A program made the translations under genes and the position numbers. The notes below the pieces were generated by a model that saw only the letters and a program-made list of their open reading frames with translations, did not search any database and was not told the origin of the DNA. Of a stretch of DNA of 64,000 bases, positions 1,912 to 53,702 are shown piece after piece; position 1 is the stretch's first letter; each line of letters opens with the position of its first letter. The DNA comes from Minisyncoccota bacterium. GTDB taxonomy: Bacteria > Patescibacteriota > Minisyncoccia > Phycocordibacterales > UBA9973. The DNA lies in assembly GCA_041650615.1 (NCBI GenBank), contig JBAZKU010000001.1, forward strand, positions 386,360 to 450,359. The letters are read 5' to 3'.

Positions 1912-3837
1912 TTAGTTTTTTATTCCCAACTTTGCTTCGTCTCTTTTCTTCGGTATTATTCCATGCGCGATAATTATCTTATCATACTCATCTTGCTCTA
2001 GGGTTTCAACTTCAATAAGTTTAACAGCAATCGCGTCAAGCGCTTTTTTGTGTTCAGTTAAAACTTTCTCGGCTGATTTTATACCATCATTTATGATTCT
2101 GGAAACTTCAGCATCAACTTTTGTGGAAACTGTTTCAGAATATCCTTCTTCTCCTCTCATCTCTCCCCAATTTAATTTGCCTCCCTCCCCAACTAAACTA
2201 ATCGGACCGATTAAATCCGACATCCCCCAACGAGTGACCATGGCGCGAGCTAAATTCGTAGCCACTTGCAAATCACTTGAAGGTCCGGTAGTAATATCGC
2301 CAAAAACCATTTTTTCGGCAACATATCCGCCGAGGGACATTGCAATATCATCAATAAATTCTTTTTTGGACTGAAGCCGTCTATCTTCTAGGGGCAATTT
2401 TAGAGTATACCCCCCAGCGTTGCCACGAGCAATAATAGATACTTTGTGCACCGGGTCAGCATTCGGCAAAACAGATGCAACTATGGCATGTCCTGCCTCA
2501 TGATATGCGGTAATTTCTTTTTCTTTCTTGGAAAGTAAGTGGCTTTTTCTTTCAGGACCAAGCATTACTTTTTCAATAGCGCGAATCAGATCAAATTGAA
2601 AAACTTTCTTACGATTTTCCCGCGCCGCCAAAATGGCTCCTTCGTTCATTAAAGAATATAAATCAGCGCCGGAAAATCCAGGCGTTCGTTCGGCAATCAA
2701 TTTTAAATTAACATCTTCAGCTAATGGTTTTAATTTTGAATGAATTTCCAAAATTTCTTCGCGGTCTATGCGGTCCGGCAAATCTAGTAATACTTTCCTA
2801 TCAAAGCGTCCGGGACGAATAAGAGCCGGATCAAGCACATCTGGTCTATTGGTAGCCGCCATCACAATCACTTTTTCGTTGGGCTCAAAGCCGTCCATCT
2901 CAACTAAAATTTGGTTTAGGGTTTGTTCACGCTCGTCATTTCCTCCCCCAAATCCGCCTCCACGAGTACGCCCGATTGCATCAATTTCATCCATAAAGAT
3001 AATGGCAGGCGCGGATTTTTTGGCCATCTTGAAAAGATCACGCACTCGAGACGCCCCTACTCCAACAAACATTTCCACAAATTCGCTTCCGGATAAATGG
3101 AAAAATGGCACTATCGCTTCTCCTGCTACAGCACGCGCCAATAATGTTTTACCTGTTCCCGGAGCTCCGGTTAAAATTACTCCTTTGGGAATTCTAGCTC
3201 CTATATCCAAAAACTTTTTCGGATTTTTCAGAAAGTCTACAATTTCCTTCAATTCTTCTTTTGCTTCTTTACATCCGGCAACGTCTTTAAAAGTTACTTT
3301 ATTGTTTTTATCATTCGGGTCGGTAATACGAGCTTTGGATTGGCCGAAAGTAAATGCTTGCATACCCGCGCCTTTTACCTGGCGGGAAAGATACCAAAAG
3401 AAAAAGATTATGAAAAGAATCGGCAAAAGAAAAGGCAAGATATTCACCATCCAATACCAAAATCCGCTTTCATTTTTTATTTCTATGCTCGTTGCCGCTA
3501 AAACTTCCGGTTTTACTCCATAATTAAAAAGGGTTTGTGAAAGAGAAGATTCTGTTTCTTTTTTAGAAATTTTTATCGTATCGTCCTTATAGGTAATAGT
3601 CAAATTTTCTCCTTCAACTACAATTCCCTTCACCTCCCCGGCTGAAACGCTTTTAGCTAAATCGGAAATAGAAACATCAGGTATGGTCTTAGAAGTATCA
3701 GCTATTACCAAATAAAGCGCCGTAATGACCATAAAAATCAAAATAGCTCCAAGGATATTGCCCGAAAATTTAGGTGTTTCCTTTTTCTTTTTGCCTTTAT
3801 TTTTTGGCTCTTTTTGATTTAAAAAATTAAAATCCAT
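1912..3837 (-). CDS. ftsH: ATP-dependent zinc metalloprotease FtsH
   Basis: N-terminal TM segments, AAA Walker [19 protein letters not shown], zinc site HEAGHA. Confidence 0.93.
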
Positions 3838-3925
3838 CCCGTTAGAAATAGGAAATCTTTAGATTTCCGTAGTTAATTTTAATCATGAATAACCGTTAAA
3901 CTATATGATTTCTAACGGGATCCAT
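3832..3925. mobile_element. MITE-like element, family 1 copy A: 12-bp terminal inverted repeats CCCGTTAGAAAT/ATTTCTAACGGG flanked by direct repeat ATCCAT, fused to the ftsH start codon
   Basis: TIRs at 3838-3849 and 3908-3919; ATCCAT at 3832-3837 and 3920-3925; the left ATCCAT is the reverse complement of the ftsH ATG-GAT. Confidence 0.5.
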
Positions 3926-4156
3926 AGTCAGGCATTATAGCACAAAAATTTAAAAAATAAAAATTCGGTAAAAAAAATAGCTAATGAAATATTATTAGCT
4001 ATTTTTTATTTTGCTTTTTTTTACTCCACCATTCGTCAATGAAGTAACAGGTTGGGAAAAAAACTATTAAAAAAACAAAGGTTATAATCCCTGCTATTAA
4101 TTTTGCATTTTCCATATTTCCTCCAGATTATTTACAAAATAACATTAAAGAACTAT

Positions 4157-7172: not shown

Positions 7173-7188
7173 TCCGCCCTTGGCGGAA
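7173..7188. repeat. GC hairpin motif TCCGCCCTTGGCGGAA (family 4), rpmI-rplT junction
   Basis: Same 16-mer with 1 mismatch at 21155 and 26460; variants at 40264 and 54585. Confidence 0.5.
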
Positions 7189-7205
7189 GTTTAATTTAAA
7201 AAACC

Positions 7206-10216: not shown

Positions 10217-10801
10217 TTATTCATCCACTCCAAAACGTTTATATTCGCAAATTTTGGCATTGCCAAACCAATGTTTGATTTCATGTTGCGCTTCTTCCGG
10301 TGTTTCGGAACAATGCACAATATTCATTACTGCTCTTTTTTCCTTATTGGCAAGGGCAGGAGAATCTATAGAAAAATCTCCGCGAATTGTGCCCATATCC
10401 GCTTTGTAAGGCATAGTGTCCCCGGCTATTTTACGAACCACATCCACTGCATGCACGCCTTGCACAATCATTTTTACCAATGGAGTGCTTGTCATATAAC
10501 TTATTAACCATTTGCGAACTTCTGGTCCAATTTTGGAAGTATCGCCTGTGCCAAAATCAGCTACTAAATCATATCCGTATTTTTCATAAGTTGTTTTTGT
10601 CTTTTCTCCAAGACGAGTTATCCATTCTTCTTTTTTGGGATAATGATTGTCAATTTCATCATGAGTGGGCTGAAACATTTCAAGCGCCACAATCTTCAAA
10701 TCGCGTTGCTCAAAACGCTTGATAATCTCGCCGATAAGACCTTTTCTGACCCCGTCCGGCTTTATCATTACATATGTCTGTTCTTCTTTTGGATGTTTCA
10801 T
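10217..10801 (-). CDS. ndk: nucleoside-diphosphate kinase, long form with an internal insertion of about 35 aa
   Basis: YVMIKPDGV, active-site NIVHCSE; 194 aa versus the usual about 140. Confidence 0.75.
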   Translation of the reverse strand: MKHPKEEQTYVMIKPDGVRKGLIGEIIKRFEQRDLKIVALEMFQPTHDEIDNHYPKKEEWITRLGEKTKTTYEKYGYDLVADFGTGDTSKIGPEVRKWLISYMTSTPLVKMIVQGVHAVDVVRKIAGDTMPYKADMGTIRGDFSIDSPALANKEKRAVMNIVHCSETPEEAQHEIKHWFGNAKICEYKRFGVDE

Positions 10802-10943: not shown

Positions 10944-13703
10944 TTACTGCATCGAAGCATACCTAGCCATGATTTCTTTTTCCACTTCTTCGCGGTCACG
11001 ACCGTATTTTGTATAAGAAAGTTGTTTTAGACTGTCTACAATTTCCTTATTCCCCTCTTCCGGCGGTAGTGTTTTTAGATTAAAAGGTTTTGTCGGTTGA
11101 CCGTTTACCAACATACTCATATAAGCATTATAATTATCCAATTTGGTTATATCTTGAGCACTGAATGTTGGTTTGAATTTTGGCTCTAAGAAATTCGCGT
11201 CTTCCGTCCCAACGCGAAACACTGCCATTGAACCGACATTGCCAAAAACCGCATTCTTAATATTTTCCCCTAATTGAGTAATATACTGATGAGCAATATT
11301 AAGCGATAGTCTGTATTTTCTGGCCTCGGATAAAATGGAAGCGATAGAGTCGGTTGTTACGTTTTGAAATTCGTCTATGTATAGATAAAAATCATTTATC
11401 GGTTTGCCGAACATATCCACTCGGGAAAGCGCGGCCATTTGAATTTTACCTACAAGCACTAGACCAATCAAATTTGCATTAATATCGCCTAATCTGCCTT
11501 TGGAAAGATTCACCAGTAAAATTTTTTTCTCATCCATAATCTTTCTAAAGTTAAAAACCGAATTTTGTTGGAGCACCACCGGACGCATAATGTCATTGGA
11601 AATAAAATTATCAAATTTTGAAGAAATATAAGGTACAAAGTTTGCCAAGGATTGATCCCCGGTCGTTTGTTCGGCTGAAGTCCAGAACTGTTTTATAATA
11701 GGATTTTTACAGCGGGCTAATTTCAAATCACGAAATTCTTTATCTGCTAAAACTCTGGTAATCTCCAATAAAGTTGAGCCAGATTCGGGATCTTCCATAA
11801 CCAGAAAAGCACTATTGCGAAAATATTGCTCAAACATCGCCCCACCGCCGATTTTCATATCAAAAAGTTTATTAAAGATACCCATCATTTCATTTACCAC
11901 AAATGTTTTTTGCTCCGGATATTTCGGGTCATATTCCAGCATATTCAGCCCCATCGGTCGTATGGTATAAGCCGGGTCAAAATAAATCACATCATCCATG
12001 CGTTTTTTGGGGATACGGGACAAGATAGTTTGAATATCCGTCCCGTGAGGATCAATATAACAACAACCGTCGCCGTTTTTTATATCCTGCGTTATCATAT
12101 TAAGCATAATATTCGTTTTACCGGTTCCGGTTTGGCCAATAGTATAAAAATGCCTCATGCGATCTTCTCGCGACATATGAATAACAGTATCTTTTCCCCT
12201 GTAACTATTTACTCCTAGCACTATTCCCTCTTGTCCCATCTCTAACGGGGCGGGAGCAATGCCAGCTTTTGCTTCTTTTAATTGTGGCTGGCTTCCTATA
12301 CCGACAGGAAAATGAAACACGGAAGAAAGTTCTTTTAAATTCATAGGCAAAATCTTATCTCCAGAAAATGTGCGGTATGAAAAATCGTGGAAAAGTTCTT
12401 TCAACCCACTGTCGGAAATTCTCTCAAACATGAAAGAGTTGCTAGTTGATTCGGTAAATTGATTGAAAGAAGACTCTATTTCCGCCAGTATCATTAAGGC
12501 CCTTTCTTTTGTCGCAGCGGAAGCCACAACTCGAATATTTGCTTTCATGATTGTGCTTTTCATCTTATTGCCTATTTTTTCTATTGCGCCTTCATCTACC
12601 GCTTTTCTGCCTGCCACATATTTTTCCTCGGTCTTTTCTTTTTTCTTCACACCAAAAAGCAAATCTTTTGAAGCTTTCAAAAACGCCTTATTAAATTTAT
12701 AAAAATTATCCGCTGCATGTTTTACTGACATCCCTCCTTTAACATCATCTAAAATCAAATGAAATTCATCTATAAATTTCTCGCCAGCAGGAGCTATCAC
12801 CAGTTGAATGGCAGCACCTTCTCCTTTGGTTTCTAATTTCGAAAAAACATTGAGTAAAGTATTCATTGGATCGTGATCAATTTGATCATAAGTTTTTATA
12901 GGGAGAACAGAACGCTCTGAAAAATTAGCATAAGCTCCGATAGAGACACCATTCTCATTAAAAATATTATAATCATCTGTCACTTCACGGATTTTCGCAT
13001 CATGATAAAAAGCTAGAATTTGTTTCTCAAAAAGCGAGATATTTTTATTTGGTATAGCAGCATAAACTATCACCTCATCCGAGTTATTACTAAGCGCTAT
13101 TTCTAGCGTATAATAATTTTCTTTTTCATTATTTTTTCCTTCCGAGATAGATTGCATTCCTGCATAAAACTGTTCCATAGCACCGATAAATTCTTTAAAA
13201 TTTTTCTGTTTGTCGACTTCTTCCTTGGGCGGGGGAAGAGTTATTTCAAAAAGGGTCATATGAAGAGATTTAAAAAGAGGAGTCCCTTCTTTCAAATCAA
13301 ATATTTTACCTGTTTTTAAATATTGAATTAATACTCGGTGAAAATCATCATCTATGTGCGGATTCTCCATTGTTTCTACTATGGATAATGCATTTCTAAT
13401 TCCTTTAGTTATCACAATACCCAAAAGCTCTTCCATTTTACTATCATGAGTTTCGGGTTTAAGTGCAAGCACTATGCTTTCCGCTTCCTTTCTATTTATA
13501 ATGTTGTCTTTGTGGATAATTTCTTCTATAGGTTTTTCTTTATATTCTCCTATAATATCTTTCACCGCATTTTCATTCGCACGTTCAAGTTTCCCTTTGT
13601 CTATGAGTTCTTGTTCTCTTTTCGCAACATGAGCGCGCAAATAATCCAACTCTTCTTCCGGAGTTTTAAATTTTGGCGCTTCGCTCAAAAACGACTTTTC
13701 CAT
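10944..13703 (-). CDS. FtsK/HerA-superfamily P-loop ATPase, T4SS VirB4/VirD4 (TraC/TraG)-like, with a 500-aa soluble N-terminal region
   Basis: Walker A GQTGTGKT, IDPHGT, Walker B LYIDEFQN, ARKYRLSLNIAHQYITQL (T4SS ATPase RK...Q..QL motif); start set at MEKSFL (the upstream in-frame stretch is translation of a GC-rich repeat). Confidence 0.55.
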   Translation of the reverse strand: MEKSFLSEAPKFKTPEEELDYLRAHVAKREQELIDKGKLERANENAVKDIIGEYKEKPIEEIIHKDNIINRKEAESIVLALKPETHDSKMEELLGIVITKGIRNALSIVETMENPHIDDDFHRVLIQYLKTGKIFDLKEGTPLFKSLHMTLFEITLPPPKEEVDKQKNFKEFIGAMEQFYAGMQSISEGKNNEKENYYTLEIALSNNSDEVIVYAAIPNKNISLFEKQILAFYHDAKIREVTDDYNIFNENGVSIGAYANFSERSVLPIKTYDQIDHDPMNTLLNVFSKLETKGEGAAIQLVIAPAGEKFIDEFHLILDDVKGGMSVKHAADNFYKFNKAFLKASKDLLFGVKKKEKTEEKYVAGRKAVDEGAIEKIGNKMKSTIMKANIRVVASAATKERALMILAEIESSFNQFTESTSNSFMFERISDSGLKELFHDFSYRTFSGDKILPMNLKELSSVFHFPVGIGSQPQLKEAKAGIAPAPLEMGQEGIVLGVNSYRGKDTVIHMSREDRMRHFYTIGQTGTGKTNIMLNMITQDIKNGDGCCYIDPHGTDIQTILSRIPKKRMDDVIYFDPAYTIRPMGLNMLEYDPKYPEQKTFVVNEMMGIFNKLFDMKIGGGAMFEQYFRNSAFLVMEDPESGSTLLEITRVLADKEFRDLKLARCKNPIIKQFWTSAEQTTGDQSLANFVPYISSKFDNFISNDIMRPVVLQQNSVFNFRKIMDEKKILLVNLSKGRLGDINANLIGLVLVGKIQMAALSRVDMFGKPINDFYLYIDEFQNVTTDSIASILSEARKYRLSLNIAHQYITQLGENIKNAVFGNVGSMAVFRVGTEDANFLEPKFKPTFSAQDITKLDNYNAYMSMLVNGQPTKPFNLKTLPPEEGNKEIVDSLKQLSYTKYGRDREEVEKEIMARYASMQ

Positions 13704-13748
13704 AATTATAATTATAACATTAATTTTAAAAATTCGTCGAAGGTGTAG

Positions 13749-13866
13749 TTTTTTCGAGACATTGCGCAGGAGCTTAGAAAATAAAGAAGGTAATCCGACT
13801 ATTATTTTCTTGAGCGACGAGCATAGCAATCCGCAAGCTTGCGGATATGCGTGTCGAGAAAAAATT
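13749..13866. repeat. GC-rich repeat family 5, copy Y (ATTGCGCAGG ... GACGAGCATAGCAA with a 44-nt internal insert; CCGCAAGCTTGCGG palindrome)
   Basis: Shares CATTGCGCAGG and GACGAGC-GAGCATAG blocks with 48632-48660. Confidence 0.45.
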
Positions 13867-13882
13867 ATACCGAGAAAGAATT

Positions 13883-14650
13883 TTAAATCTGTGTCAATAT
13901 CTCCGGTTCGCCATCAGTAATCAAAATAGTGTGTTCAAAATGCGCGCTTTTTTTGCCATCGGCGGTGTGGAAAGTGTATCCATCTTTATCCAAAATCACG
14001 TTTTTTGTCCCATTATTCAACATTGGCTCTATGGCTATAACCATACCAGGTACAAGTTTTGCCCCTGTGCCAGCTTTCCCAAAATTTGGAATATAAGGAT
14101 CTTCATGTATGGCGCGTCCGACGCCGTGCCCGGATAAAACCTCTACAATGCCGTATCTATGCGGACGAACAAAACTTTCTATGCTATTGCTTATGTCTCC
14201 TACTCTGTATCCCGCTTGGGCTGCTCTAATACCCATCATCAAAGCTTTTTCAGTGATTTCTATAAGTTTTGCAGAAGAAGCACTGACTTCGCCCACAGGT
14301 ACAGTAATAGCCATATCAGTAAAAAGTCCGTTATGTTTCAATCCTAAATCCAAAGAAACAATATCGCCTTCTTTTAAAATTTTATTTTTATTTGGAATGC
14401 CATGAACCACTTCATCATTAACAGAAACACATAAAGAAGCCGGGTATGGGAAATCCGCCCCTTCCGGACGATAGTTTAAAAACGCCGGTTCATCATCCAT
14501 ATCTTTTATTAATTTTTCTACATATTTATCCAATTCCCAAGTGGAAATTCCCGGTTTTACTATTTCTTTAACCTTATATAAAACAGTAGCCAATCTTTTG
14601 CCTCCTTCTCGCAATATTTTTATTTCTTCCGGGGTTTTGATTATTATCAT
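13883..14650 (-). CDS. map: methionine aminopeptidase type I
   Basis: Typical Map fold motifs (metal ligands within GHGVGRAIHE and HFEHT). Confidence 0.88.
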   Translation of the reverse strand: MIIIKTPEEIKILREGGKRLATVLYKVKEIVKPGISTWELDKYVEKLIKDMDDEPAFLNYRPEGADFPYPASLCVSVNDEVVHGIPNKNKILKEGDIVSLDLGLKHNGLFTDMAITVPVGEVSASSAKLIEITEKALMMGIRAAQAGYRVGDISNSIESFVRPHRYGIVEVLSGHGVGRAIHEDPYIPNFGKAGTGAKLVPGMVIAIEPMLNNGTKNVILDKDGYTFHTADGKKSAHFEHTILITDGEPEILTQI

Positions 14651-15328: not shown

Positions 15329-15913
15329 TTAAAATTTCAATGCTTTAATAATATCTTTATGCACATTTTCTATAGTTTGCTCCCCATTTATTTCAATAAA
15401 ATTATATCCCGATTTACCGCGAAAATATTCAACCGATGGCATAACATCTTTCTCATACCAATTAAGTCTATTCTGAATTTTTTCTGGCGTATCGTCCGCT
15501 CTTTTACGTTCCATCATTCTAGTATAAGACCAATCTTTTGATACATTCATTAAAATGATATTCGGTTTTTCTATTTTATAAAAATCAAAAGCAGAATCAA
15601 GAGCTATTGATTCTTCTTTTCTACGGCAAACTCCGTCCAAAACCAGATCTTGGCCTCCGGAAAAATTCTTAATTAAAATATCCGTCCAAATCCAAATTGG
15701 TAAAAATACGGGAATAAGACCACCTTCTTTTAATATATTTCCAGCAAGTTTACTGGAATAATTATTTGTTTTTATAAATTCCCTAAATTGATTACCTGTT
15801 TCAGTGTATATAATCTCTTTTCCTTGCGACTTTAAAAAATCAGCCAAAAGTTTGGCTTGAGTTCCTTTTCCACATCCAGATCGCCCAAAAAATACAAAAG
15901 CTTTTGAATTCAT
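15329..15913 (-). CDS. adk: adenylate kinase
   Basis: P-loop GRSGCGKGTQA. Confidence 0.85.
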   Translation of the reverse strand: MNSKAFVFFGRSGCGKGTQAKLLADFLKSQGKEIIYTETGNQFREFIKTNNYSSKLAGNILKEGGLIPVFLPIWIWTDILIKNFSGGQDLVLDGVCRRKEESIALDSAFDFYKIEKPNIILMNVSKDWSYTRMMERKRADDTPEKIQNRLNWYEKDVMPSVEYFRGKSGYNFIEINGEQTIENVHKDIIKALKF

Positions 15914-21154: not shown

Positions 21155-21170
21155 TCCGCCCTTGGCGGAA
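21155..21170. repeat. GC hairpin motif TCCGCCCTTGGCGGAA (family 4), 5 nt upstream of the rplN start
   Basis: Exact 16-mer; gene-strand reading TTCCGCCAAGGGCGGACAGGT-ATG. Confidence 0.5.
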
Positions 21171-21175
21171 AATTA

Positions 21176-26081: not shown

Positions 26082-26543
26082 CTAAAGCATCTTTACATCA
26101 ATATCCACTCCTGAAGGAAGAGATAGGTTAGTAAGCGCCTCAACTGTTTTTGGATTTGGATTTATAATATCAATTAATCTTTTGTGAACTCTTATTTCAA
26201 ATTGTTCTCGAGTATTTTTGTAAATAAAAGATGCGCGATTAACTGTGTATTTTTTAATTTCGGTCGGCAATGGTACTGGTCCGATTATTTCCGCATCATA
26301 ACGCATAGCCGTGTCTATAATTTGTTTGACCGAGCTATCAAGAATTTTACTTTCATACGCTCGTACACGTATGCGAAGTATTACTTTACTTTCTTCTCCG
26401 CTCACTCGGGCTGATTTCTTTTCTTTAAGAGGAGAAATCTTCTTTCCGTCTGAGGAGGATCCGCCCTTAGCGGAAACTTTTTTCACCTTCTCTTTATCAG
26501 TCAAGATTTTTGGCTTTTTTGTTTTTGTTTCTTTAGTTGCCAT
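26082..26543 (-). CDS. rpsJ: 30S ribosomal protein S10; the annotated 50-aa N-terminal extension is doubtful
   Basis: Core S10 begins near SKVILRIRVRAYESKILD; the extension contains the family-4 hairpin 26460-26475, so the true start may be the downstream in-frame GTG (V of VSGEES), about 20 nt 3' of the hairpin. Confidence 0.8.
   Translation of the reverse strand: MATKETKTKKPKILTDKEKVKKVSAKGGSSSDGKKISPLKEKKSARVSGEESKVILRIRVRAYESKILDSSVKQIIDTAMRYDAEIIGPVPLPTEIKKYTVNRASFIYKNTREQFEIRVHKRLIDIINPNPKTVEALTNLSLPSGVDIDVKML
26460..26475. repeat. GC hairpin motif TCCGCCCTTAGCGGAA (family 4), tuf-rpsJ junction
   Basis: 15/16 identity to the 7173 and 21155 copies. Confidence 0.5.
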
Positions 26544-39698: not shown

Positions 39699-39807
39699 CC
39701 CGTTTAGAAATCATACTATTTATACACATATTTTTATATATAAAAATAGTTGATTTATATTAAATTTATAACTTATTCCCGTTTTGTAAATTTCTAACGG
39801 GATTCAT
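39693..39807. mobile_element. MITE-like element, family 1 copy B: TIRs CCCGTTTAGAAAT/ATTTCTAACGGG, direct repeat ATTCAT, fused to the SIMPL gene start
   Basis: ATTCAT at 39693-39698 and 39802-39807; TIRs 39699-39711 and 39790-39801. Confidence 0.5.
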
Positions 39808-39845
39808 ATATTTTACCCGCATCACCTACGGGATAATCTATTAAT

Positions 39846-42515: not shown

Positions 42516-43853
42516 CTATTGAATGACTCTCGGTGTAACAAAAACTACCAATTCCGTATCTTCTTGCGATTTTTTCAAACCGCCGAATACGGTGCTCCCA
42601 AGAGCCGGTATAGACGAAAGTCCAGGAATCCCATCCGCGTTATCTTGCTTACTCTGCATTAAAAGTCCACCAATGGCAATTGTTTTGCCATTTTCGACTC
42701 TAATAGTTGTCGTTTCCGACCTACGAGCAGTACTGGGAAGATTCTGAGAGCTGCCATTGTTCTCAAATTTTCTTTCCCCGATGATATCGGAGATTTCATG
42801 GTTGAGAACTATTCTCAACATTCCATCGCGAGAAATAAAAGGTTTGACCTTCATTTTGATGCCTGTTTCCACTTCTTTTGTAGTGAAATAGTTATAAAAG
42901 GCACCACCCCCAGAAAGAATTAAGTATAAGTCTTCCTGGGTTATTTTGATCTCCCCTTCACTTCCGTCTTCTACCACTATCCGCGGTTCAGCAATTATGT
43001 TCATCTTGGCTTCATAGCCATTGGCTTTTAATAAATTGCTTAATTGCCCAGTGAGATTTCCCACAAAAATACCGGGGACTTCTTTTTTGAACTCTCCTGT
43101 TCCTAGTGCGCCGAGGTTAATATCCCCCCATTGCATTCCAAGATTAGTCCCCTTGCTCCATTGAAATAAAACAAATCGCACCGAAACTTCAATTTGTCGT
43201 TTTGTTTTATCAATTATAGCAATAACCTTCTCCAATTCATCCAGTACGTCCGATGGTCCAGTTAAAGTTAGACTGTTCCCGGTTTTTGAAGGAGACATAT
43301 ACTGTTTATAATATTCCGAAATTTGATCCACTACTTTTATGGCTTCCTGATTAGTTGTGATAACTCTTGTACTGGAAAGTTGGCCAAAATTCAAATTTTC
43401 TGGGATAGCTTTTCCTACTATATAATAACCTTCCATACAGCGAAAATTAAATCCGCCGACAGAAAGAACCTGAGTAAGAGCAGCCTCCAAAGGGGTATTA
43501 ATAAAGGAAACAGAAATCGTTCCTTGAACCGATTCATCAACAATGATATTGGTTTTCGTCTGTGTAGCAATATCTAATAAAACTTCTTTTATATCAGATC
43601 CGGTGAAAACATTTGTGACTTTGGGCTGAGACTTCAGCCGTTCGTTTCTCTTTTTTTTGATTTCCGAATATTTTTCTTCCGCTTTTTTGGCTTCAGCTGA
43701 TTCAAGCTCTTGAATTTGCTTTGTGGTCAACGTTGGCTGAGACTTGATCGGAAGCATTTTTGGAAGCGCTTCCGGTTTGGTAAGATTGCTTGAGCAACCC
43801 ACCAAAAGAGTGATAGTTGAAAAAATTAACAAACCCATAAATAGGTTTTTCAT
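42516..43853 (-). CDS. secretin-family outer-membrane channel lipoprotein (short PilQ/GspD/RcpA-like)
   Basis: Lipobox LVGCSS; C-terminal secretin motif TIAIGGLLMQSKQDNADGIPGLSSIPALGSTVFG...ELVVFVTPRVIQ. Confidence 0.7.
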   Translation of the reverse strand: MKNLFMGLLIFSTITLLVGCSSNLTKPEALPKMLPIKSQPTLTTKQIQELESAEAKKAEEKYSEIKKKRNERLKSQPKVTNVFTGSDIKEVLLDIATQTKTNIIVDESVQGTISVSFINTPLEAALTQVLSVGGFNFRCMEGYYIVGKAIPENLNFGQLSSTRVITTNQEAIKVVDQISEYYKQYMSPSKTGNSLTLTGPSDVLDELEKVIAIIDKTKRQIEVSVRFVLFQWSKGTNLGMQWGDINLGALGTGEFKKEVPGIFVGNLTGQLSNLLKANGYEAKMNIIAEPRIVVEDGSEGEIKITQEDLYLILSGGGAFYNYFTTKEVETGIKMKVKPFISRDGMLRIVLNHEISDIIGERKFENNGSSQNLPSTARRSETTTIRVENGKTIAIGGLLMQSKQDNADGIPGLSSIPALGSTVFGGLKKSQEDTELVVFVTPRVIQ

Positions 43854-45130
43854 TTAGGCCTCTCTTTCTTTGTGATTTTTTTTGTGATTTTGGATTTTTC
43901 TTCCACTGATAAACTTATTTCTGAAACCAACCCTCTGTCAGGTTTCACAATAATTGTCGTCCTTTTTGGAGACTTACCATCATTGGAAACAATTAGTTTT
44001 ACATCTTTACTCTTCCCTGGTTCAATGGTTAAGCTTTGTGGCTCAACCTTAATCCAAGAATCAGAAACAAAAGAAACATTAATTGGCCGACAGTCGCTGT
44101 TAAAAACTTTGACTACCTTTGTTCTTAATGCTCCGACAGGAATCTGTATATCAACTTTTTTCTCAACAACCAGAAATCCGGTTTTATTTTCGTCAATGTG
44201 AACTTTTCGATTAATTGAGAAGGCTGTTTGGGAAATTGCCTTTTTGACTTTATTCCCATAATCAAACATTACATCAACTACATACTTACCTTTTGGTAAT
44301 TTTTTATCCCAGACTCCGATAAAATTTCTCTCGTCGCCCGGAAAAGTAAATACTTCATCTTTTGGATTTCCCATAGCCAGCAATTTTACCTGGCCGAAAT
44401 TCGTTCTTTTGTCTTCACTTCTGATAATTGCTATACCAGAAACAAAAAGATGAGAATTGCCGATATTTCTGAAAGTCGAAACAATTAGAGTTTTTTCCGC
44501 GAGTTGTTCAAAATTTGGCAACGCGTAGAACAACTGATGATCATCTTTGTAACTACCACTTATTGTCTCGTTTTTGATTTCCTGAATCAATTCTTTATTG
44601 ACAGGGATCATTTCCGCTGAACTAGCCTGAGCTTTTTTTTCATAAATTCTACCCGGCACGTTTAAGATAATGGCAACGTAAATTCTTGATTTGAAATATA
44701 TTGCCATAGGTTTGTCTTTAACCTCTATCCTGGTCGCACCTACTGGTTCAATCATAATAATTGAATAATATTCGCCAGGTTGAGCATTCAGTGGTACAGA
44801 GATTTTAAATTTTAGTTCTTTTTTTTGACCCTCGCTTAAAGCAAGTCTTGTTTCGTCTAATTTAATCCACGATACAGCTGAAAATTTGGAATTACCCATT
44901 TTTTCAAAAGTATAAACACCCATCTTGTTGATTGATAAATCAGTCGGATAAATCATTAGGTTTTCGGTATTCATTCCCTTAGACCCAGTGACAGTTAAAG
45001 TAATATTTTGACTTTGTCCTCTTGGAATTGTTAATTCCACTTTTACAGGACTCACTTTAACAGCCTTAGCTATATTTATCAGCGACAGACAAAAAAACAA
45101 CAATATAATGTTCTTTATGAATTTCTTCAC
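43850..45130 (-). CDS. secreted beta-rich protein with two Ig-like halves (possible periplasmic chaperone-like component)
   Basis: Signal peptide; VSPVKVELTIPRGQSQNITLTVTGS; 4-nt overlap with the secretin gene. Confidence 0.4.
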   Translation of the reverse strand: MKKFIKNIILLFFCLSLINIAKAVKVSPVKVELTIPRGQSQNITLTVTGSKGMNTENLMIYPTDLSINKMGVYTFEKMGNSKFSAVSWIKLDETRLALSEGQKKELKFKISVPLNAQPGEYYSIIMIEPVGATRIEVKDKPMAIYFKSRIYVAIILNVPGRIYEKKAQASSAEMIPVNKELIQEIKNETISGSYKDDHQLFYALPNFEQLAEKTLIVSTFRNIGNSHLFVSGIAIIRSEDKRTNFGQVKLLAMGNPKDEVFTFPGDERNFIGVWDKKLPKGKYVVDVMFDYGNKVKKAISQTAFSINRKVHIDENKTGFLVVEKKVDIQIPVGALRTKVVKVFNSDCRPINVSFVSDSWIKVEPQSLTIEPGKSKDVKLIVSNDGKSPKRTTIIVKPDRGLVSEISLSVEEKSKITKKITKKERPK

Positions 45131-51144: not shown

Positions 51145-51450
51145 TTACAGCGATGGGTCAACAATAGGCGAAGGGGAACTTAAAATTTCAATGGATTTCT
51201 TCTCACGTTCTTTAAAATACTCCAGCACTTTATCAATTCTTTCTTTTTTTATTGCTTCCCGTTCATTGGTACTTAAAACTGGCGGATTCGGTTCCTTGTT
51301 TATTTTTATAAAAAGATAAAAATCAAACACAAAAGAGAGTATAATTAATATGAATGTTATATAAAGAATATACCTCCAATAAAGATCCGGTTTAATCCCC
51401 AACCCTCCTTTTCTGAACCTTTTTTCCCTTTTCAAAAATTTTATTTCCAT
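51145..51450 (-). CDS. small single-pass membrane protein (hypothetical; position after pilO suggests a possible PilP-like accessory)
   Basis: One TM helix, 101 aa; family-1 element fused to its start. Confidence 0.4.
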   Translation of the reverse strand: MEIKFLKREKRFRKGGLGIKPDLYWRYILYITFILIILSFVFDFYLFIKINKEPNPPVLSTNEREAIKKERIDKVLEYFKEREKKSIEILSSPSPIVDPSL

Positions 51451-51521
51451 CCCGTTAGAAATCTTAATATTTATAATTTTTTCTTTTTATTTCCCGTTAG
51501 TGAATTTCTAACGGGATCCAT
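51445..51521. mobile_element. MITE-like element, family 1 copy C: TIRs CCCGTTAGAAAT/ATTTCTAACGGG, flanks TTCCAT/ATCCAT
   Basis: TIRs 51451-51462 and 51504-51515; inner hairpin CCCGTTAG-TGAATTT-CTAACGGG. Confidence 0.5.
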
Positions 51522-51534
51522 ATTTATTAAATTA

Positions 51535-52084: not shown

Positions 52085-52633
52085 TTATGAAGGAATTAAG
52101 CTTAGGCTAAATTTAATGTTGGATCCCTGTATAAAATTGGAAATTGGCAAGTCAACTTTTGAAAAAGCTATGTCGTCTTCAAGTGTTTGACGAAATAAAA
52201 GCAAAATTTCACGATTTGGCGCTATCCCGCCAATGTCTATTTTTTTGCCTGTTTGTGAATTATTTTGGTAAGCAATTCTTGTAATTTTAATATTCGGCAT
52301 TTTTTTTAATATAATTTCATTTATCACTTTCTGGGAAAAGATCAATTTGTTTTTTTGAGTATTTTCAATTAAGTCCAACTTATTTTTTAAATCATTAACA
52401 ACTGCCAATGTACTTTGATCAAGAGGGGTGACAGGGTTGCTTGTTTGTAATTCTAACCTTGCGTTAACGGTATTTTCTTCCACAGAAGAAAGAAAATATG
52501 ATGGTAAAATAGCGACGGAAGCGATTAAGAAAGATATTCCCAGCATAATAAAAATAATAGAGGCAAGCCTGAGATAAAAATCTCTAGACATTTTTTTCTT
52601 ATCTTCATTTGGAATTAAATTAATCATGTTCAA
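52085..52633 (-). CDS. pilN: type IV pilus assembly protein PilN
   Basis: INLIPNEDKKK (INLLP hallmark), TM, about 180 aa. Confidence 0.7.
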   Translation of the reverse strand: MNMINLIPNEDKKKMSRDFYLRLASIIFIMLGISFLIASVAILPSYFLSSVEENTVNARLELQTSNPVTPLDQSTLAVVNDLKNKLDLIENTQKNKLIFSQKVINEIILKKMPNIKITRIAYQNNSQTGKKIDIGGIAPNREILLLFRQTLEDDIAFSKVDLPISNFIQGSNIKFSLSLIPS

Positions 52634-53702
52634 AATCTCTTAAAGCAAGCCCTAAGGTGGTAGCAAATGCCAATGATTGATTAAAATTTATTTCCGGAAT
52701 ATATTTCCCCGTATCTCCGATATTTATCCAAACATCGGCCATTTCCACTCTTGTTTTTGTACTGACAGAAAAATACTCGGAAAGTCCTATTAAATTAGAA
52801 TCCCCTCCGCAAAGAATTATTTTTTTAATCGGAGGTCTGTCTTTCCCCTCTTCGTCTTTATGAGTATGCCAATATAAAAAATGTTTTACTATTTCATCAC
52901 GCAAAACAGAAACACCGTTTAAAAGTATGGTAGATACTTCGGGATTAGAAGCGTCACGTTTTAAGCCACACTCTTTCTTCTTTTTTTCCGCTTCCTCAAA
53001 ACTTATCTTTAAATTTTTCTCAATTATATTGGTAAGCATGACCCCTCCCATATCTAAAGTGGAAGTAAAAATGACAATACCGCCGGACACAATAAAAATA
53101 CCGGTGCGTTTTTTACCAAAATCTACTATCATATAAGTTTCCAAATCACCTTTTTTAATAACGGCCCTAACAATAGCCTGCGCTTCAAGTTCAAACGACT
53201 TGGCAGATATTTTGGAATTCTTAAAAATAGACAGGTATTCTTCAATTACATTTTTGGGAATAGCGGCTACTTGTAGTTTTAAACTTTGTTCGTCTTCGCT
53301 CAATAATTCATAATCAAATATGGTATCTTGCGCTGAGATTGGTATATATTCTTCAAGAGAAAGTTCTATCGCTTCTCTGACATTTTCTAATCCTAATTTT
53401 TCCAGTTTAAGATTAAAAAGATAGACCTGCTCTTCTGGTAAAGAAACCCGAACAGATTTCAGTCCTTCTTCATTCCGAAGCGATATTAAAATTTCTTCCA
53501 TTTTTTTGGGGTCTTTAATTTTACCAGATTCAATGATTCCTGACGGTATTTTTTTCTCTCCATAACGATTCACCTTAATGCTATTTCCTGTTTTAATAAG
53601 TTCCACAAATTTTATGGATTCATCTGAAATGTCCAAGCCAAAAGACGGCAACACTAGAAATTTCGGCGTTGGGAAAAATCTCTTAAAAAAATTTCTAAAC
53701 AT
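52620..53702 (-). CDS. pilM: type IV pilus assembly ATPase-fold protein PilM (FtsA/actin-like)
   Basis: FGLDISDESIKFVEL, actin-fold length; leaderless-type start. Confidence 0.8.
   Translation of the reverse strand: MFRNFFKRFFPTPKFLVLPSFGLDISDESIKFVELIKTGNSIKVNRYGEKKIPSGIIESGKIKDPKKMEEILISLRNEEGLKSVRVSLPEEQVYLFNLKLEKLGLENVREAIELSLEEYIPISAQDTIFDYELLSEDEQSLKLQVAAIPKNVIEEYLSIFKNSKISAKSFELEAQAIVRAVIKKGDLETYMIVDFGKKRTGIFIVSGGIVIFTSTLDMGGVMLTNIIEKNLKISFEEAEKKKKECGLKRDASNPEVSTILLNGVSVLRDEIVKHFLYWHTHKDEEGKDRPPIKKIILCGGDSNLIGLSEYFSVSTKTRVEMADVWINIGDTGKYIPEINFNQSLAFATTLGLALRDFEHD

Follow-up and report, generated by a model that had tools for sequence, protein, structure and literature searches.

A DUF8128/T4CP-like ATPase gene between map and ndk at the tail of the spc ribosomal operon in a patescibacterial genome

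The subject of this study is an ATPase gene in a 64,000-nucleotide stretch of DNA from a Minisyncoccota bacterium (assembly GCA_041650615.1, contig JBAZKU010000001.1, positions 386,360 to 450,359), hereafter called the window. A first-pass annotation made from the sequence had described the product as a soluble 919-aa ATPase of conjugative type, encoded between map and ndk. Our analysis places the protein in a family that joins a DUF8128 domain to a domain resembling the type IV coupling proteins (T4CPs) of type IV secretion systems (T4SSs). The features of the locus are given below in window coordinates, and residue numbers refer to the 919-aa protein.

10944..13703, minus strand: complete coding sequence of the DUF8128/T4CP-like ATPase, 919 aa plus stop; reading frame intact, ATG at 13703
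13269..13703, minus strand: residues 1-145, helical acidic "adaptor" domain (hidden Markov model, BLASTP 1e-6 and alignment; low model confidence, predicted helical)
12234..13268, minus strand: residues 146-490, DUF8128 (PF26449), a repeated alpha/beta (ferredoxin-like) domain, fold-level indication of likeness to the VirB4 N-terminal domain (Pfam, Foldseek)
10947..12233, minus strand: residues 491-919, TrwB/VirD4-type nucleotide-binding domain with an inserted all-alpha domain (Pfam, NCBIfam, Foldseek, profile against PDB)
12114..12137, minus strand: residues 523-530, Walker A GQTGTGKT (G523, G526, G528 and K529 invariant in 92 sequences)
minus strand, residues 550-555: motif IDPHGT, present in the 919-aa protein
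11574..11915, minus strand: residues 597-710, helical bundle between Walker A and B, equivalent of the all-alpha domain (model helices 597-701; almost the entire TrwB-deltaN70 chain aligns)
11361..11384, minus strand: residues 774-781, Walker B LYIDEFQN (D777 and E778 invariant in 92 sequences)
11271..11324, minus strand: residues 794-811, ARKYRLSLNIAHQYITQL, conserved Arg/Gln sensor region after Walker B (R795, K796, Y797, Q806 and Q810 invariant in 92 sequences)
13704..13882, minus strand: map-ATPase spacer, 179 nt, with a palindrome/hairpin and a promoter-like pair
13883..14650: map (Peptidase_M24; Pfam), upstream neighbour of the ATPase gene
10217..10801: ndk (NDK; Pfam), downstream neighbour of the ATPase gene

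Read mechanically, the open reading frame (ORF) reaches back to a TTG at 13829. The ATG at 13703 was taken as the start because the alignments of hundreds of homologues begin at residue 1 of the 919-aa protein. This protein is identical to a deposited hypothetical protein from a metagenome-assembled genome of Candidatus Paceibacterota. No transmembrane segment is predicted in it, the highest 19-residue Kyte-Doolittle mean (1.54) lying within the ATPase core, in keeping with the description as a soluble protein. The four motifs reported at first pass were all located at the residues listed above. Judged by these motifs and the invariant catalytic residues, the ATPase is a catalytically intact member of the DUF8128/T4CP-like family.

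Position and conservation of the gene

According to Pfam searches of the window, the ATPase gene is preceded by genes for SecY, adenylate kinase, a protein of the amino-acid-kinase family and methionine aminopeptidase; those after it encode NDK, a small membrane protein, a beta-CASP RNase and a SLOG protein. None of infA, rpmJ, rpsM, rpsK and rplQ occurs anywhere in the 64 kb, and thus the ribosomal cluster ends at map here. For comparison, one genome per species was scanned; relatives were found in at least 531 stretches, and the best 80 loci (77-87% identical) were compared. The neighbourhood is common to all of them (80/80). Among the loci with enough flank, map lies upstream of the ATPase gene on the same strand in 63 of 66 species genomes, and 64 of 69 have ndk downstream. 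Relatives share the wider order rpsE-rplO-secY-adk-(AA kinase)-map-X-ndk-membrane protein-RNase-SLOG, where X is the ATPase gene; beyond SLOG, rplT and rpmI are encoded on the other strand. The location between map and ndk was therefore correctly given at first pass, and the accompanying claim that the gene is inserted there and breaks ribosomal synteny is withdrawn, since the position is conserved among relatives.

The sequence is conserved to a similar degree. Across the 80 loci, the median identity to the window's own copy was 81.6% for the ATPase and 83.2% for SecY; ribosomal proteins lay at 76-84%, map at 75% and adk at 41.5%. The 120 best database relatives, out of 2,438 homologues found, are 82-92% identical over the full length and belong mostly to Nomurabacteria/Paceibacterota; the window itself comes from a Paceibacterium of the Nomurabacteria type (CPR). 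The composition of the gene resembles the remainder of the window. A HMMER scan of 1.84 billion cluster representatives (50% identity) gave 19,481 matches to the family, 4,907 of them at E<1e-30. Within the Nomurabacteria-type clade, the ATPase gene holds a fixed place at the end of the spc ribosomal operon (secY-adk-AA kinase-map-X-ndk), and its rate of evolution is as low as that of SecY. Given this fixed synteny and SecY-like conservation, we regard it as a core gene under strong constraint and not an orphan insertion; it is very probably a vertically inherited chromosomal member of the T4CP family. The remnant of an integrated conjugative element (ICE) considered earlier is rejected on the same grounds, and the size of the family also speaks against it.

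Three-part architecture of the protein

The C-terminal part was placed by profile searches and by structure. A family profile built from 92 members and searched against PDB sequences retrieved TrwB (2.6e-8), DotL (1.7e-5) and, weakly, HerA (5e-3); it retrieved no VirB4, and FtsK was not retrieved at E<=1. The NCBIfam matches were conjugative TraD families (best 3.7e-10), and relatives are annotated with PF10412, PF02534 and PF12696. An AlphaFold model computed from the 92-member alignment is confident over residues 140-919; residues 1-140 have a low predicted local distance difference test (pLDDT) score, though they are helical. In Foldseek searches against PDB, TrwB-deltaN70 was matched at E 1e-12 with a target-normalised TM-score of 0.62-0.67 over 410-460 columns, which is almost the entire chain, and HerA, Cag-beta and DotL scored about 0.5 (HerA 0.51-0.54). 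The full-length model also aligned with TrwK/VirB4 over ~900 columns (E 2e-15), but the superposition was poor (TM-score 0.23-0.32). As modelled, the C-terminal 430 residues have the VirD4/TrwB fold and motifs, with a RecA-like nucleotide-binding domain and an all-alpha domain. The FtsK/HerA-superfamily ATPase of conjugative type named at first pass can thus be specified as VirD4/TrwB-type (T4CP-like).

A place in the HerA/FtsK housekeeping clade was rejected, because TrwB is the closer match in sequence (2.6e-8, against 5e-3 for HerA) and in fold, FtsK was not retrieved, and the DUF87 match falls short of its Pfam cut-off (20.4 < 23.2). Of the two findings that the first-pass annotation had named as telling against its reading, shared synteny among relatives was observed, and grouping of the ATPase with HerA or FtsK was not.

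The window protein shares with the VirD4/TrwB coupling proteins (TrwB of R388, DotL, Cag-beta, TraD) the nucleotide-binding domain with its inserted all-alpha domain, Walker A and B and the sensor residues, and these proteins are its best matches in both sequence and fold. It differs from them in several respects. First, it has a 345-aa DUF8128 domain ahead of the nucleotide-binding domain. In addition, coupling proteins usually have a two-helix anchor, whereas the DUF8128 family is anchored by a single membrane helix, which the window protein lacks. Finally, its gene belongs to the chromosomal core, lies in a ribosomal operon and has no relaxase or T4SS linkage.

The N-terminal 500 residues, described at first as unlike anything recognisable, can be assigned in large part. 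Residues ~146-490 correspond to PF26449/DUF8128, a precomputed Pfam annotation carried by the identical deposited protein and by all listed homologues, and residues 146-918 match PHROG 5156 at 9.6e-80. In the HMMER scan, the conserved core of the family spanned residues ~145-915, and residues 1-145 were matched only in closer relatives. No paper mentioning DUF8128 or PF26449 was found in the literature searched. Modelled alone, the DUF8128 domain reached a pLDDT of 86.6 and a predicted TM-score (pTM) of 0.86. Its model gave 13 significant Foldseek matches in PDB, all of them TrwK/VirB4 chains (E 2e-6 to 2e-4, query-normalised TM-score 0.41-0.46), and the next matches were generic ferredoxin-like folds. 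With VirB4 (TrwK of R388; TcpF/AAA_10 of Gram-positive bacteria), the family has in common a two-domain layout of ~800 aa and a small gene upstream that is sometimes fused; the DUF8128 fold, whose only significant matches in PDB are TrwK, is a further indication of likeness. The family differs in that no sequence-profile relationship extends past the P-loop, in that the C-terminal domain of the window protein is closer to TrwB, and in that the genomes bearing orthologues have a separate true VirB4.

Some family members are much longer, at 1,580-2,000 aa (P0182, P0184, P0187, P0191, P0194, P0195 and P0203); their first ~810 residues hold the membrane helix, DUF8128 and the ATPase. The 800-1,200-aa C-terminal extension was scanned in P0182, P0195 and P0203 and gave no Pfam match. 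Fusion partners in family members of 1,200-2,000 aa were considered as a pointer to function and gave none.

The remaining N-terminal segment, residues 1-145, was compared with the surroundings of distant homologues. In five distant patescibacterial loci (L081, L083, L087, L088 and L089), the gene directly upstream of the ATPase encodes a small acidic protein (130-182 aa) and in one of them overlaps the ATPase gene. These proteins have in common a C-terminal helical motif, KG(I/L)xxA(I)xxAxxL(D/N)(D/N)(P/A)YxLDxxH, which recurs in the window protein at residues ~86-130; the adaptor motifs of the latter are PEEELxYLR and KGIxxALxIVxxMxNPHIDDxFH. A hidden Markov model (HMM) was built on the fused clade (residues 1-140) and run on 1,106 ORFs taken from the distant loci and the window. 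It matched only the window protein and the small upstream ORFs (L083/L084 2.8e-11, L089 2.3e-8, L087 7.5e-8, L088 3.5e-7), retrieving four of the five distant-locus proteins (not that of L081).

The family also varies in its membrane helix. The non-fused members (~800 aa and longer; ~70 examined, plus P0151 and P0311) mostly start with a single strongly hydrophobic helix, typically with a Kyte-Doolittle value of 2.1-3.4, and basic residues come next. The forms of 910-930 aa, which include the window protein, are without this N-terminal helix, and the small upstream partner has no membrane helix either. Since the adaptor HMM finds the small upstream ORFs and the 910-930-aa forms have no helix, the small partner has probably been fused to the N-terminus in the Nomurabacteria-type clade of the window, where it replaces the membrane helix. 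Small acidic helical partners also accompany known coupling proteins, namely IcmS/IcmW for DotL and CagZ for Cag-beta. A tblastn search of the window with the ATPase and with the neighbours of its distant homologues revealed neither a second ATPase copy nor partner genes.

At three of the five distant loci, a DUF5663 protein of ~100 aa is encoded upstream of the small-partner/ATPase pair (L083:7302-7607, L087:3597-3896 and L088:4095-4394). L087 and L083 also encode a long, acidic protein of coiled-coil type whose C-terminal part has hydrophobic segments, and a 529-aa counterpart in L088 is weakly similar to it. The DUF5663 and coiled-coil proteins may be further components of the system. The DUF5663 proteins showed no significant similarity to the Nomurabacteria 98-aa ORFs described below.

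Distant homologues and the proposed role

Homologues spanning both DUF8128 and the ATPase, at 21-25% identity, were found by tblastn on plasmids of Bacillus, haloarchaea, Sulfolobus and Streptomyces and in Bacillus phages (G gp156, SPO1-like, TP-84). The family HMM recognised the distant homologues over both domains at 1e-33 to 3e-75, with 2.7e-75 for WP_121549396.1 and 2.1e-70 for gp156, and gave no match at E<=10 to plasmid TcpF/VirB4 or to phage G gp155. On the B. subtilis plasmid NZ_CP032854, WP_121549396.1 heads a conjugation module: directly after it come a Replic_Relax relaxase, conjugal transfer proteins, TcpE and an AAA_10 ATPase sharing 45% identity with TcpF (VirB4). This layout puts the homologue in the position of a coupling protein. 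In phage G, gp156 follows gp155, whose C-terminal domain is VirB4-type. Foldseek searches of BFVD gave full-length structural matches in Bacillus phages (gp156 at E 1e-45, a phage JL protein at E 1e-40), and of these only the phage JL protein superposes well overall, with a TM-score of 0.60 both ways against 0.43/0.47 for gp156. The Bacillus plasmid and phage DUF87/DUF8128 proteins (G gp156, JL, SPO1-like; PHROG 5156) thus share the two-domain architecture with the window protein; they differ in their 21-23% identity, in lying on mobile elements beside relaxase and VirB4 genes, and in having no fused adaptor.

The phage G locus (L085, 4243-8385) is of interest in its own right, as the adjacent VirB4-like gp155 and DUF8128/T4CP-like gp156 make up a two-ATPase T4SS-type module in a giant phage.

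T4CP homologues of Patescibacteria were surveyed by Quiñonero-Coronel et al. (2025, Microb Genom, PMC12102498). In the parts of that paper drawn on here, VirB4 is reported from 2,417 of 3,035 genomes and relaxases from 103 only. Its Table S3 lists KKR00358.1, KKR20588.1, KKR37483.1 and KKS24372.1 as T4CPs found with the CONJScan profile t4cp1 at 88% coverage, each with the entry "VirB4 proximity: No". We found these four proteins to be 83-84% identical to the window protein and consider them direct orthologues. According to the rows for their genomes, each has VirB4 and VirB2-type hits elsewhere and two also have VirB3; the rows contain no other t4cp1-type hit, and FtsK/TcpA-type (t4cp2) hits are listed separately. 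The T4CP homologues not near virB4 in that survey are hence the same gene set as the family of the window protein, present there as profile hits only. Because the gene class is already catalogued, the basic finding is not new. In the literature searched, as far as the parts consulted extend, we did not find the three-part anatomy, the switch between helix and fused adaptor, the conserved small partner, or the fixation at the spc operon tail with SecY-like conservation.

On balance, we lean towards the view that the window protein, as part of a chromosomal core DUF8128/T4CP-like family, is the coupling or energising ATPase of a relaxase-less patescibacterial T4SS. By analogy with TrwB, it would act as a hexameric ring motor. 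It would dock on a membrane translocon through its DUF8128 and adaptor domains and use ATP to recruit and feed the substrate. The most probable partner would be the relaxase-less MPF-FATA-type T4SS (VirB4/TrsD/VirB3/VirB2) encoded elsewhere in the same genomes, and what is moved may in that case be protein, or DNA that needs no relaxase, rather than a conjugative plasmid. A T4SS appears the most likely partner because the orthologue-genome rows hold no other t4cp1-type hit and distant homologues occupy coupling-protein positions; the narrower claim that the window protein itself works with a T4SS is held more tentatively.

The proposal would matter for the biology of the group. Patescibacteria account for much of bacterial diversity and are host-dependent. 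Their T4SS, which lacks relaxases, is essential for growth on the host in Southlakia epibionticum, the sole lineage tested genetically; a coupling-protein-like ATPase is the component expected to choose its substrate. The family offers several handles on envelope transport, namely a slow-evolving core gene in a major clade, a putatively VirB4-like front domain, a dedicated small partner that is free or fused, and both membrane-anchored and soluble forms.

Several observations weigh against the coupling role. No T4SS or relaxase gene was found in the window or within ±6 kb in the 80 related loci, which bears out the first-pass remark that no other conjugation gene is nearby. The Pfam matches of the ATPase lie exactly at threshold (TrwB_AAD_bind 20.5 with a cut-off of 20.5, TraG-D_C 22 with a cut-off of 22). 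The coupling-protein-type anchor is missing from the 910-930-aa forms. An hhalign comparison with a TcpF-type VirB4 alignment detected the P-loop region only, at a probability of 23%; between DUF8128 and the N-terminal domain of VirB4 it detected no homology. As this profile-profile comparison detects the P-loop alone, the VirB4-like nature of the modelled DUF8128 domain, which comes from Foldseek, is an indication at the level of the fold and not an established homology. Finally, the consulted parts of PMC12102498 report 5,713 VirD4-type T4CP homologues in 2,918 genomes, of which 148 of 5,713 are near virB4, and describe the t4cp of S. epibionticum as non-essential and its T4SS genes as essential.

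A T4SS-independent role is conceivable because t4cp homologues occur in more genomes than VirB4 does, are rarely near virB4, and are dispensable in Southlakia. The foremost alternative, which we consider unlikely though the best placed of its kind, is accordingly an exapted translocase with a housekeeping job of its own. It might pull in DNA behind ComEC or the type IV pilus, handle the chromosome or nucleoid, or export a dedicated substrate. Such a job would explain the location in the ribosomal/secY operon, and the SecY-level conservation and the fixed position after secY-adk-map speak for it; the authors of PMC12102498, in the parts drawn on here, raise exaptation themselves and state that it cannot be excluded. 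One distant locus has PilM_2 and RmuC directly downstream, and in the window genome PilM and a secretin lie about 30-40 kb from the ATPase gene. However, no conserved link to comEC, pil or division genes appears in the 80 close loci or in four of the five distant ones, and the distant homologues with informative context sit in conjugation-type modules. In the literature as consulted, Southlakia can do without ComEC, and ComEC is not what makes the type IV pilus and T4SS essential. The partnership with the type IV pilus or competence system suggested at first pass therefore found no specific support, PilM standing downstream at one distant locus only. The separate t4cp2 hits in the same genomes make the window protein unlikely to be an FtsK replacement.

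More speculative still is the idea that the DUF8128 ATPases form a third lineage beside VirB4 and VirD4, uniting a VirD4-type motor with a VirB4-type N-terminal domain and a small adaptor of its own, and perhaps standing between VirB4 and VirD4 in evolution. In Patescibacteria, they would then be a near-universal housekeeping motor, independent of conjugation and perhaps of VirB4. If so, the motor could move, for example, host-derived DNA, nucleotides or proteins needed for the epibiotic lifestyle, which would explain both the SecY-level conservation and the capture into the ribosomal/secY operon. The three-part architecture bears on the divergence of VirB4 and VirD4, and current views are not overturned.

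It is improbable that the protein is a second, divergent VirB4-type assembly ATPase that energises pilus or channel biogenesis rather than substrate coupling. The idea draws on the alignment of the full-length model with TrwK/VirB4 over ~900 columns, on the exclusive match of DUF8128 to TrwK/VirB4 in PDB, and on the small upstream partner gene, sometimes fused to the N-terminus, which recalls virB3-virB4. Nevertheless, the overall TM-scores to VirB4 are low (0.23-0.32), and no match to the Pfam models CagE_TrbE_VirB, AAA_10 and P-loop_TraG was obtained at E<=1. The sequence profile finds TrwB and DotL in PDB and no VirB4, the family HMM misses plasmid TcpF/VirB4 and gp155, and the hhalign match is confined to the P-loop. 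The small partner, unlike VirB3, is without a membrane helix, and a bona fide VirB4 is already present in the orthologue genomes.

An ICE or prophage remnant, or a defence-system ATPase of the MADS mad8 or HerA type, is highly improbable: PADLOC gave mad8 at 2.7e-10 (a partial match) and HerA at 9e-6, PHROG 5156 matches at 1e-79, phages and plasmids have homologues, and the map-ATPase junction is an insertion hot-spot in some relatives, but the position is constant in essentially all related species genomes, purifying selection is strong, the composition is window-like, the phage and plasmid homologues are only 21-25% identical, and no integrase, relaxase, other mad gene or nuclease partner is present in any of the 80 loci. 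The MADS/HerA defence role was rejected on context, the neighbours being map, ndk, adk, secY and the beta-CASP RNase.

The map-ATPase spacer and other features of the window

The first-pass annotation had placed an extremely GC-rich repeat immediately upstream of the ATPase gene, at 13749-13866. This segment has 40.7% GC against a window mean of 35.9%, which is the 76th percentile of 118-nt windows, and repeat searches found it once in the 64 kb. The spacer matches no Rfam family. With composition, repeat searches in the window and Rfam all negative, the GC-rich repeat was rejected. Instead, the spacer carries one 18-nt palindrome/hairpin, ATCCGCAAGCTTGCGGAT, at 13829-13846 and a promoter-like pair consisting of TCGACG (13740-13735), 18 nt and a TG-extended TATAAT (13716-13711). 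Transcription from this pair would begin at or beside the ATG, so that a leaderless start is predicted from the sequence.

The spacer can be viewed as a cassette of the hairpin, a conserved CTCCTGCGCAA box and the -35/-10 pair, and it recurs at other intergenic positions of related genomes at about 75-88% identity. Copies lie before the SLOG gene (L014:12000-12170 and L077:11351-11460) and before map (L029:3587-3652). In the L077 copy, the hairpin keeps its pairing through changes on both arms. The cassette may be a portable terminator/promoter module.

In 17 of 63 related loci, including L011, L016, L021, L023, L029, L037, L038, L040, L049, L053 and L059, the junction between map and the ATPase gene is widened by 0.7-2.7 kb of additional genes of varied kinds. 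The inserts include a UvrD-like helicase (L016, L037), pairs of small unannotated ORFs (L053, L009), a pair of 363-aa and 98-aa ORFs in four loci (L023, L029, L040, L049) and a 592-aa ORF in L021 that resembles the putative ABC-type gene of the window by tblastn. No informative Pfam match was found in the genes inserted between map and the ATPase gene. The junction is an insertion hot-spot in an otherwise rigid operon and does not hold a conserved partner set.

Within the same operon, adk (15329..15913, minus strand) stands out with a median identity of 41.5% in the 80 related genomes, compared with 69-84% for every other operon gene. This low conservation suggests replacement or relaxed constraint.

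Pilus- and secretin-related genes are also present in the window, the secretin being found in a Paceibacterium presumed to be single-membraned:

42516..43853, minus strand: PilQ/GspD-type outer-membrane secretin, 445 aa (Pfam Secretin 7e-34 plus a GspD N0 domain)
43850..45130, minus strand: 426-aa ORF adjoining the secretin gene on its upstream side, no Pfam match
52620..53702, minus strand: PilM, about 9 kb from the secretin region, with two 182-aa ORFs next to it

Two kinds of short repeat were observed. A GC-rich palindrome, TCCGCCCTTGGCGGAA (family D7), has three intergenic copies in the ribosomal gene region, at 7173-7193, 21155-21175 and 26460-26480. A repeated element around the inverted motif ATTTCTAACGGGAT / ATCCCGTTAGAAAT (families D2, D12, I1, I24 and I25) occurs at three loci, 3796-3961, 39750-39815 and 51431-51529.

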